A stretch of DNA of 64,000 nucleotides from Eledone cirrhosa. Lineage: Eukaryota. A program made the position numbers and the translations under genes. The stretch lies in the NCBI GenBank assembly GCA_964016885.1, contig OZ024742.1:251286001-251350000 (forward strand), in the 5' to 3' direction. Position 1 is the stretch's first letter; the number at the start of each line of letters is the position of its first letter. Below, one piece after another: positions 9,487-12,599 of this stretch. A model generated the notes under the pieces. The model was not told the origin of the DNA and made no database searches. It saw nothing but the letters and a program-made list of their open reading frames with translations.

Positions 9487-10952
9487 CATTATTACACACT
9501 GTTTAGTACGACCCCAAAGTACATACTGGAGACTACGCATCGAGTGCTCACTTTGGTGAACCAACAGTAACTTGACATTACAATCCCTATAAATATATGT
9601 GTGTGAATGTGTGTGTGTGTGGGGGGGGGGTACAGCCAGTACAATGCAATATAAATATGTAGAATAGCAAATAAAACAAAAAGGATAGCAAATAAAACAA
9701 AAATGTTTTCCTTACTCGGTATATTTCAACATAATATTTCAAAACGAAACAAAAAATAAAACTAAGCAAAACAAAAACGAACGATGTGTTCTTCTTTAAC
9801 TATATATATATATATATATATATATATATATATATATATATATAATTGGAAATTTAGTAAGTTCGAATCTCTGGCGGTTTGCAAACAAATTCGGCCTACT
9901 TATATGAAATGATGAGTTAGCAAAGCACTCGATAAGGTAGGTCCTTAGAGTAATAACATTCGTCTAAATAGCTTGACAAATCGAACATTGTGGTAGGCAA
10001 AATCTAACACACAATAATATACCAAAGTAACGATAGAACTAACAGGTTGAGAAAAATACACCTGGACAAATCAAACGATTATACGTTTAAAGTGTTTCTT
10101 TGAATCCGAAATCAAATATCAGACTTACGTGACTGGCAAGCTCGTGGTATTCATGATCGAACAGATCATGAATATAATCATGAATATAATCATTTAATAC
10201 ATATATATATATACATATATATATATATATATATATATATATATATATATATATATATTTCGTTTCTGAATTTGTTTAGCAAGATTCTTTATCTGAAATC
10301 GTGTGTTGAAACCGATATTGTTATACTTTGGGAGGGTCATGTTGCCAATAAGAAACACACGTACCAGTTGCTTTCACTTCAATTTATTATAATAAATTTA
10401 TAAATTTATAAATTTCTGGTTGGTTGGTTGGTTGGTTCCACAACCAGATAGTTGTTTATATATAGTCATAGTTCTTTCGTCACACACTCTGTGACATCTT
10501 CAGTGACTGGGGATTCCTTTCTTTGTTTCTGTGCCTCTCCTTTGTTCTGTCCTACGCCATTTTGTTTCCGTGTGTGTGTTGTGTGCTCAGTCTGCGCATG
10601 CGCCACATCCGGGTGTCTGTGTGTGTTTATGTTCATTTATTTATTTGTTTGTTTGTTTGTTTATTTACATGTTACTGGTTGGTTGTTTGTTCTATGTGTG
10701 TGTGTGTTTTCATTTTGTCCTTAATTGTAAGTTGTGATGTTGCTGTTCCACTCATATTTTCTATTTAATTTTGGTTGTAATTCTTTTATGTTTATTGCCT
10801 CTGTAATTTGTCTAAACATTGCGTCTTTTCTGTGTGTAGATTCTATTTTTATTTCTATGTTCTCTAATTTACCCTTGTGTTCTATTTTAGCATGTTGGTA
10901 GAGTACAGATGATTCTTTATTATCTTGAAGGTCTCGCCAGTGTTCATTTGAT

Positions 10953-11177
10953 GAACACTGGCGAGACCTTCAAGATAATAAAGAATCATCTGTACTCTAC
11001 CAACATGCTAAAATAGAACACAAGGGTAAATTAGAGAACATAGAAATAAAAATAGAATCTACACACAGAAAAGACGCAATGTTTAGACAAATTACAGAGG
11101 CAATAAACATAAAAGAATTACAACCAAAATTAAATAGAAAATATGAGTGGAACAGCAACATCACAACTTACAATTAA
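10953..11177 (+). pseudogene. 5'-truncated C-terminus of a Penelope-like GIY-YIG endonuclease (mirror copy at 10721-10945, minus strand)
   Basis: Open frame EHWRDLQDNKESSVLYQHAKIEHKGKLENIEIKIESTHRKDAMFRQITEAINIKELQPKLNRKYEWNSNITTYN* shows the EH..S..H...H..R...E..I...P.LN pattern of PLE GIY-YIG domains. Not in the supplied ORF track. Confidence 0.8.
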
Positions 11178-11389
11178 GGACAAAATGAAAACACACACAC
11201 ACATAGAACAAACAACCAGCTAGTAACATGTAAATAAACAAACAAACAAACAAATAAATAAATGAACATAAACACACACAGACACCCGGATGTGGCGCAT
11301 GCGCAGACTGAGCACACAACACACACACGGAAACAAAATGGCGTAGGACAGAACAAAGGAGAGGCACAGAAACAAAGAAAGGAATCCCC

Positions 11390-11434
11390 AGTCACTGAAG
11401 AGGTCACAGAGTGTGTGACGAAAGAACTATGACT
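11390..11434 (+). ncRNA. Candidate minimal type-I hammerhead ribozyme (mirror copy 10464-10508, minus strand)
   Basis: AGTCA-CTGAAGA-G-GTCACA-GAGTG-TGTGAC-GAAA-GAAC-TA-TGACT: stem I 5 bp, stem II 6 bp, intact core, CUA triplet, vestigial stem III. The mirror copy has a T at the inserted position after A9. Confidence 0.7.
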
Positions 11435-12599
11435 ATATATAAACAACTATCTGGTTGTGGAACCAACCAACCAACCAGAAATTTATAAATTTATTATAAA
11501 TTTATTATAATAAATTGAAGTGAAAGCAACTGGTGCGTGTGTTTCTTATTGACAACATGACCCTCCCAAAGTATAACAATATATATATATATATATATAT
11601 ATATATATATATATATATATATATATATATATATATATATATATATATATATATATATATATATATATATATATATATATATATACATATATATATATAT
11701 ATATTAAAATATGATTATCATTATTACACACAATTATTTGCTCTACGGTTCTTATATATTTGATATATATTTATCATTATCGAGCTCTCTTTGGATTTTA
11801 GTCTTCAAAATTATTGTTATTACTATATATATATATATTATAAAAGGACGATTTGTTATGTTTTCATTACGTTTATTGAATAGTGACGCGCGTCTCGCTA
11901 TTGATAAGTTCATGGTTTGGTCTATATCGCGATCTAGGCAGACTCTGGAATCAAAAGCTCATCGGACCTCTGCTGTGGTAATGACAGGGTGCTCACTCGG
12001 GTGAATCTACAGTAACTGCACGTTACATTCCCTATATATATATATATGTGTGTGTATGTGTACAACGGGCAACTGCATTTTTCACTGAAAGTCGACCTGA
12101 GGCTATAGTAGAAGACACTCGTCCAAGGTACCGCGCAGTGGGACTGAAATCAGCCCTATATGGCTGCGAAGCGAACTCCTTAACCACACAGTGTGTGTAT
12201 GATATAAAATTTTATATCATACACCGTGTGTGTATGATATAAAATGTGGATACACCGTTACAGAGTTATGCTTTCACACTTCTCATCATTGTGACGTAGA
12301 GAGAGAAGTGAGTGATACAATGAGAGGTACAGAGAGAGGGGGGGGAAGGATTCGGTTGAAGTGAATACAGTTAATGCGTAACTAAGGTAATGATGAGTCA
12401 AAGATGACAACCAGGTTGTATTCAGTAATAGAAAATACCAGAATCTACAAAGTTGTGACATTTTGTAATGGTCTATGGTGGTGGTGGTGGTGGAGCTGTG
12501 AAGTGTTGTCGTAATGTGTGGCGGTGGTGTGTTGTGGTAATGTGTGGTAGTAGTAGTGTGCAGTGATGTGGTTGTGTGTGAGGGTTTATGTTAGTCTGT

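Follow-up and report, generated by a model that had tools for sequence, protein, structure and literature searches.

A one-tailed palindromic insertion of a Penelope-like element in Eledone cirrhosa, and the possible priming of its two arms from both ends of the target

Penelope-like elements (PLEs) are known to leave inverted, 5′-truncated copies that carry a tail of 30-40 bp at one end and show a bias towards (TA)n targets (PMC8557442). Palindromes have been described at the junctions of such copies, with the tail on one of the two inverted pseudo-long terminal repeats (pseudo-LTRs), and self-priming on an antisense template was proposed to explain them (PMC3846280). In vitro, the purified protein of PAc, a PLE of the anole, cuts and extends both target strands, is predicted to form a dimer, and has two reverse-transcription start sites which correspond to the two ends of the tail (PMC11167929). 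Here we analyse a palindrome in a stretch of 64,000 nucleotides of the Eledone cirrhosa genome (assembly GCA_964016885.1, contig OZ024742.1, positions 251,286,001 to 251,350,000, forward strand), referred to as the window, in which coordinates are counted from the first letter. It is near certain that the locus is the insertion of an endonuclease-bearing PLE, truncated at its 5′ side, into a (TA)n tract. On balance we favour, with some caution, the view that the palindrome is a single insertion in which two copies of the element's 3′ end stand head to head, each cut end of the target having primed the reverse transcription of its own arm. The layout itself is not new: the literature already has inverted copies, palindromes at their junctions, tails on one side and hammerheads in opposition.

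The palindrome lies between two (TA)n tracts (10197-10258 and 11579-11704) and consists of a left arm on the minus strand (10315-10949) and a right arm on the plus strand (10951-11582). The reverse complement of 10315-10947 is 10951-11582 with five substitutions (paired positions 10679/11219, 10677/11221, 10496/11402, 10362/11535 and 10345/11552) and two indels (four extra nt at 10434-10437, three at 11491-11493), about a three-nucleotide loop, TTG, at 10948-10950. An initial annotation of this DNA, made from the letters alone, had already described this near-perfect palindrome and its loop correctly; it had extended it over 10258-11582, however, and the outermost 56 nt (10259-10314, minus strand) have no mirror copy. 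They form a tail on the left arm, which is longer by that amount at its outer end, whilst the right arm stops at the tail-less end; the flanks beyond show no mirror symmetry. At the tip, TT is parental sequence and G is not, so that the left arm follows the parent for 2 nt further than the right (10948-10949). The 74-codon frames that had been noted on either strand are indeed there, reading outwards from the tip at 10953-11174 (+) and 10945-10724 (-), or 10953-11177 and 10721-10945 with their stops. They have neither a start codon nor the YIG motif, and the tip cuts just past this motif and the arginine that follows it; the copy therefore encodes no enzyme.

At 0.8% substitution distance between the arms, and 0.8-1.0% between each arm and the column majority of 35 copies, the insertion is fairly young, in agreement with the earlier description of a young, 5′-truncated PLE copy in (TA)n. 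The two arms share a 12-nt expansion that is absent from all 35 other copies, and they are mutual nearest neighbours among 99 arms of at least 550 nt. Homogenisation by gene conversion, an idea prompted by an identity of 93-97% to other copies, is unnecessary to explain this closeness, because the gap in identity consists mostly of microsatellite indels. Hairpin chimeras are, as is generally known, an artefact of long reads, yet we hold a fold-back read or misassembly to be most improbable here: the flanks are not mirrored, there is a single tail as in 43 of the 46 sibling pairs described below, and the arms differ at seven places, with two of the differences being alleles that also occur in other copies. 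No read piece bridging the tip was found among the pieces listed from five of 21 sequencing runs, data that consist of short contigs or reduced-representation reads; the repeat has thousands of copies, the individual sampled may differ from that of the assembly, and 25 of 80 pieces were seen in one comparison.

Judged from its sequence, each arm consists of the final 74 codons of a GIY-YIG endonuclease, followed by the pseudo-LTR of a PLE of Neptune or Nematis type. In longer copies, the frame carries in order the YVDD motif of a reverse transcriptase (RT), a C-x4-C-x2-C linker, and a C-terminal domain with YIGET; in these parents the domain reads VVYSIRC...C...YIGET...R..EH...H...E...N, and its last 74 residues are the frame of the window. 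Pfam recognises GIY-YIG in the parent domain with an E-value of 6.6e-4 and 20.4 bits, under the cut-off of 22.6, and RVT_1 as a weak match below its cut-off in three of five homologues; for the 74-aa and 82-aa frames of the window Pfam gave no match. Using the 775-aa frame of locus L031 as a query returned 90 proteins, the best of which is an RT-domain protein of Octopus vulgaris (62%), which points to an octopod as the likely host. A family profile was built from the 35 of these 90 homologues with a C-terminal YIGET-like motif, thus from relatives of the parent and not from an independent family library, and the window's frame scores 70.5 bits against it, where the best of 1000 shuffles reaches 10.7. 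The claim that a GIY-YIG tail sits at the hairpin tip is hence borne out through homologues of the parent, and not through Pfam. BLASTP of the frame against the Octopus protein P0002 found no match, and the P0002 record stops before that region.

The cysteine linker, present as a CX2-6CxxC pattern in 32 of the 35 homologue C-termini, points to the Neptune or Nematis clade, a tentative placement made by motifs. The element resembles these clades in its C-terminal GIY-YIG, CX2-5CxxC linker, CCHH pattern and (TA)n bias (PMC8557442). Naiad and Chlamys PLEs, with an N-terminal endonuclease and no canonical hammerhead, were considered and rejected, given the C-terminal endonuclease and the hammerhead motif here. 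A Naiad-like use of selenocysteine was likewise discarded, as the C-terminal frames of L003-L030 have their stops at scattered positions and share no in-frame TGA. Penelope families are among the recently active repeats of O. vulgaris (PMC13282606), and the present family may already figure in the supplementary lists of PMC8557442 or PMC13282606, in Repbase or in Dfam.

The outer part of each arm was identified from the sequence beyond it in other copies. Twenty loci were found with the 5′ part of the element's open reading frame (ORF): the tail end of the arm continues into it at 19 of them, and 14 of the 20 have an ORF that can be read from an ATG within the pseudo-LTR as MTLPKYNN, followed by the tail's IGFNTRFQIKNLAKQIQKR. 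This ATG is present in both arms of the window, at 11557 (+; codon 11557-11559) and at 10340 (-; codon 10338-10340), such that the pseudo-LTR ends within the start of the next unit's ORF, and tandem units ~4.07 kb apart exist. What had been annotated as a 3′ untranslated region is therefore a pseudo-LTR, and the unmirrored 56 nt are the PLE tail, coding for approximately codons 9-27 of the ORF in full-length units. We also observed clusters of full-length units, several of them head-to-tail ~4.05-4.07 kb apart (C4 94.67-94.81 Mb; C2 46.79 Mb).

Set beside published inverted PLE insertions, the locus has the same head-to-head inverted copy, junction palindrome and one-sided tail, the same pseudo-LTR with the first codons of the ORF, the same partial tandems and a microsatellite target (PMC3846280; PMC8557442). 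It differs from those insertions in its tail (56 nt against 30-40) and in its equal arms, which both run into the endonuclease; a target-site duplication is unreadable here within (TA)n.

Copies of this kind are abundant. A 25-mer at the outer end of the arm has 26,960 exact matches in the genome, the hammerhead-core pattern 17,758, and a 25-mer from the coding part 1,805, whilst one arm against the 3.0-Gb genome gives 1291 candidates, the copies outside the window being 93-97% identical among the 40 that were scored. Among the end matches listed for contig C1, the first 100 include 27 head-to-head pairs within 4 kb and two tail-to-tail neighbours. With its one-sided tail and so many matching ends, neither of which appears in the initial annotation, the locus is a routine copy: an ordinary member of a known arrangement, one among thousands of copies. 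Longer copies and further palindromes, for which this annotation had suggested a search, do exist: the longer copies are RT-bearing, and palindromes turn near the same point in 22 further places. In all, a pattern search placed tips within 24 nt of the window's at 23 places, the window included, with both arms reaching the 3′ end in 13 (11 with one tail, two with two) and one arm cut short in the other ten. A second tip pattern, just upstream of the hammerhead, occurs at 18 places, and symmetric palindromes with arms of 1.5 kb and 1.9 kb (L128, L150) exist, so the window's is not the largest.

Could the whole palindrome have been copied from a palindromic master RNA, or be itself the mobile unit, akin to a foldback element or a miniature inverted-repeat transposable element (MITE)? 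Five of the 23 tips are identical, with a 2-nt loop, as copying from one master would produce, but the 23 fall into many different junctions, tips occur over the whole length of the element between about -50 and -1909, the window's exact tip recurs at none of the other loci with these 23 tips (two differ from it by one substitution), and the window's arms are closer to each other than to the arms of other palindromes. We consider this origin very unlikely. A foldback or MITE transposon proper, a fixed unit with terminal inverted repeats that is copied whole, was rejected since tips and arm lengths vary and the tail sets one end apart from the other.

The arms and tails of sibling pairs bear most directly on how such a palindrome forms. 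The sequences surrounding 99 of the 100 end matches, and those surrounding the pairs that occur in the first 100 coding matches, were aligned with a single natural copy. At three loci no usable alignment resulted, and one pair spanning more than 9.5 kb (L144) was left out. By script, 52 head-to-head pairs were recognised, of which 40 came from the end matches and 12 from the coding matches. Six of them were dropped as unclear or decayed (L062, L071, L079, L080, L085 and the first pair of L086; by script, five with the longer arm tail-less and one symmetric), and L053 was reclassified by hand. Of the 46 pairs that remain, 43 have exactly one tail, three have two and none lacks a tail. Among the one-tail pairs, the tailed arm is the longer in 18 and the tail-less arm in 15, and ten are symmetric, their ends lying within 10 nt. 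The excess of the tail-less arm is above 100 nt in 13 of the 15, and six of these 15 pairs are young, because their arms are at most 1.1% apart. In a nearest-arm test on the 99 arms, which include loci picked by BLAST rank or tip pattern, all five tail-less-longer pairs had at least one arm that was closer to its partner than to any other arm.

Several further observations concern the arms and junctions of copies in this sample. The pair left out, L144:313-9601, consists of near full-length copies placed head to head and 99.8% identical over 1265 comparable nt, and the ~4 kb between their inner ends read like a fragment of an endonuclease-bearing LINE. Six of the 92 census arms (at L044, L046, L053, L064, L067 and L075) start at a distance of 188-197 nt from the end, close to where hammerhead stem I has its 5′ edge, and further arm starts appear to cluster near -100 and -250. 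The pseudo-LTR contains a short natural palindrome ~75-105 nt before its end (11480-11505 in the window), at which three of the ten symmetric pairs turn (L045, L078, L086).

The initial annotation had explained the palindrome by a cDNA that folded back on itself. In such a snap-back, the tailed cDNA would fold at its 3′ end and be copied as far as the tail-less end, with unequal arms arising through internal fold-back and deletions at the centre. This fits the symmetric locus in the window, symmetry being easily produced in this way, and symmetric pairs are in excess; five tips read through a self-complementary 2-bp AT, two others carry a loop of 3 nt that differs by one base from that of the window, short fold-backs are seen at the junctions of L065 and L127, deletions near the centre exist at some tips, and self-priming has been proposed for PLE junction palindromes (PMC3846280). 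Snap-back probably does occur at some junctions, such as L065, L127 and the ten tips with a short arm. As the explanation of the palindrome, we take it to be a real possibility that we nonetheless doubt, since a copy of the tailed strand cannot exceed its template, and a third of the pairs (the 15 of 46 with the longer tail-less arm, six of them young) would need quick later deletions. Further, the tail-less end does not shift by even a base, despite a longer TA run that precedes it by ~150 nt in the arm. In the anole element, this end has its counterpart in a start site of reverse transcription (PMC11167929). Some tips are loopless (C1:384583882, C14:10958052). Fold-back is thus not established, and for the symmetric locus of the window itself, sequence cannot decide between it and two-ended priming.

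Two-ended priming is favoured because a simple snap-back cannot give a longer tail-less arm without later deletion. Here the element's endonuclease would cut both strands of the (TA)n target; one 3′ end would be extended from an RNA start site that includes the tail, and the other from a site ~56 nt upstream. This would give one tail per pair, and either arm could be the longer. Both arms would be copied from one RNA, or from RNAs of one source locus, and the two cDNA ends would be joined where they stopped, via a template jump or end joining; at the window, the stops would lie within 2 nt of each other, with one extra base at the join. The inserted copy would code for nothing and could only decay, its hammerheads being passengers of the pseudo-LTR. 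Two different template RNAs were considered as the source of the arm differences and rejected: the alleles at 11219 and 11221 occur elsewhere, vary within other pairs and ignore subfamily sites, and we treat them as recurrent mutations. In favour of two-ended priming, too, symmetric pairs are no younger than asymmetric ones: before hand cleaning, pooled arm-arm substitutions amount to 1.74% in symmetric pairs, 1.14% in tail-longer pairs and 2.24% in tail-less-longer pairs.

A number of observations weigh against two-ended priming. Symmetric pairs make up ten of the 43 with one tail, where permutation gave a mean of 1.3 and a maximum of 8 in 20,000 trials, and two-ended priming would account for this excess only if both cDNAs ran as far as the same RNA end. 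One arm is cut short at ten of the 23 tips, as snap-back or later deletion would give, and deletions beside the centre at several tips (L105, L111, L115, L116) tell us that palindromes decay; were deletion at the centre fast, no age trend would be visible. Of the long pairs, only six of 12 tail-longer and five of 11 symmetric ones had an arm nearest to its own partner. Finally, the census is small, comes from a single chromosome and lost six of its 52 pairs as unclear.

Perhaps both cut target strands prime on one and the same RNA molecule at two start sites, with and without the tail, an extension of two-ended priming that we offer tentatively and think rather unlikely. Were it true, cDNAs that reach the same broken RNA end would join tip to tip as a perfect palindrome, whereas an early stop would leave unequal arms, and this one rule would cover the single tail (43/46), the asymmetry in both directions, the symmetric excess and the common source of the arms. 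The enzymology of PAc, a Poseidon element of Anolis carolinensis, offers a parallel in its two 3′ ends that define the tail, its AT-rich target and a hammerhead near the start of the ORF; it belongs to another clade, and its hammerhead overlaps the start codon, where ours lies ~125 nt upstream; we found no explanation of inverted arms in that paper (PMC11167929). LINE-1 twin priming is alike in that reverse transcription begins at both ends of the target and an inversion results, with the second primer starting beside the end of the first cDNA and overlapping it by 1-10 bp (PMC11702581). Here, unlike in LINE-1, the same 630 nt of the 3′ end are present in each of the arms. We found no published two-ended priming model for PLEs, in a search that most subscription journals lay outside, hence the idea has possibly been published.

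The hammerhead that the initial annotation had placed in its 3′ untranslated region is present in each arm. A minimal descriptor matches once per arm and nowhere else in the window, and in none of 5000 dinucleotide shuffles of an arm; the type I motifs lie at 10464-10508 (-; C3 at 10503, predicted cleavage after 10469) and 11390-11434 (+; C3 at 11395, predicted cleavage after 11429). Each has a 6-bp stem II after one extra base and a 5-bp stem I. Rfam at E ≤ 10 returned no hammerhead, its sole matches being miRNA-type hairpins below their cut-offs, due to the palindrome. Folding the isolated 56-nt hammerhead recovers stems I and II, with a stability no better than that of shuffles (z -1.10 and -1.64). 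The extra base of the left motif, 10496, is T where all 35 other copies examined have G; in the predicted fold it can pair with the G of GAAA, and might weaken the hammerhead. The motifs resemble the minimal hammerheads of metazoan PLEs, which have a long helix II with one unpaired 5′ base, a 5-bp helix I and a minimal helix III, and which occur as opposite-strand pairs 100-700 bp apart (PMC4209133). Unlike in those, loop 3 is here GAAC and non-palindromic, and the two motifs are ~890 bp apart.

Could the palindrome be a functional ambisense ribozyme RNA, or a hairpin-RNA gene under selection? One hammerhead motif per strand and a transcript of 10258-11582 predicted to fold as a single hairpin at -1115 kcal/mol might suggest so, and the initial annotation had proposed both an approximately 630-bp double-stranded RNA (dsRNA) with a self-cleavage site and a likeness to ambisense ribozyme RNAs. 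The hairpin is kept, as a prediction: transcription through both arms would yield a dsRNA of 630 bp in which the hammerheads are predicted not to fold, being paired throughout. The likeness is not supported. Each strand carries one sense motif, whose antisense arm is transcribed first, and with a single site on each strand neither a unit nor a circle could be released; minimal metazoan hammerheads did not cleave as monomers (PMC4209133), that of PAc requires protein and is not needed for insertion in vitro (PMC11167929), and the same parts are found in thousands of sibling copies. We regard such a function as barely credible. An ambisense ribozyme-bearing circular RNA, whose ribozymes would fold in both polarities and release unit-length RNA, was rejected, given the single, fully paired sense motif per strand. 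So was a non-LTR retrozyme, made of non-coding head-to-tail tandem units with a hammerhead (10.64898/2026.07.22.740005), since the arms here are coding and head-to-head.

The rest of the window holds other repeats. A separate TA-embedded repeat of ~100-120 bp (11706-11826) adjoins the palindrome on the right; it has 1644 candidates in the genome, 92-97% identical among the 40 scored, with similar pieces beside L034 and L043. Two diverged copies (75-81%) of another dispersed repeat lie at 9167-9616 and 11824-12061, the former containing a 74-bp inverted repeat at 9254-9418. A 300-codon frame at 7398-8300 (+) looks, by eye, like the remnant of a Tc1/mariner transposase. Long CAC/CAA-rich tandem arrays with strong strand skew occupy 55357-64000, which reaches the window's end, and 15286-16838.

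The palindrome layout has been in the literature since at least 2013, and this locus alone matters little. The origin of PLE inverted repeats, however, is called open in PMC3846280, PMC8557442 and PMC11167929, and a genome with ~27,000 ends holds enough young insertions for arm lengths, tails and junctions to be counted. Indeed, the small census presented here already strains a pure snap-back or self-priming model. Thousands of such hairpins in one animal genome would also be a large potential source of dsRNA.

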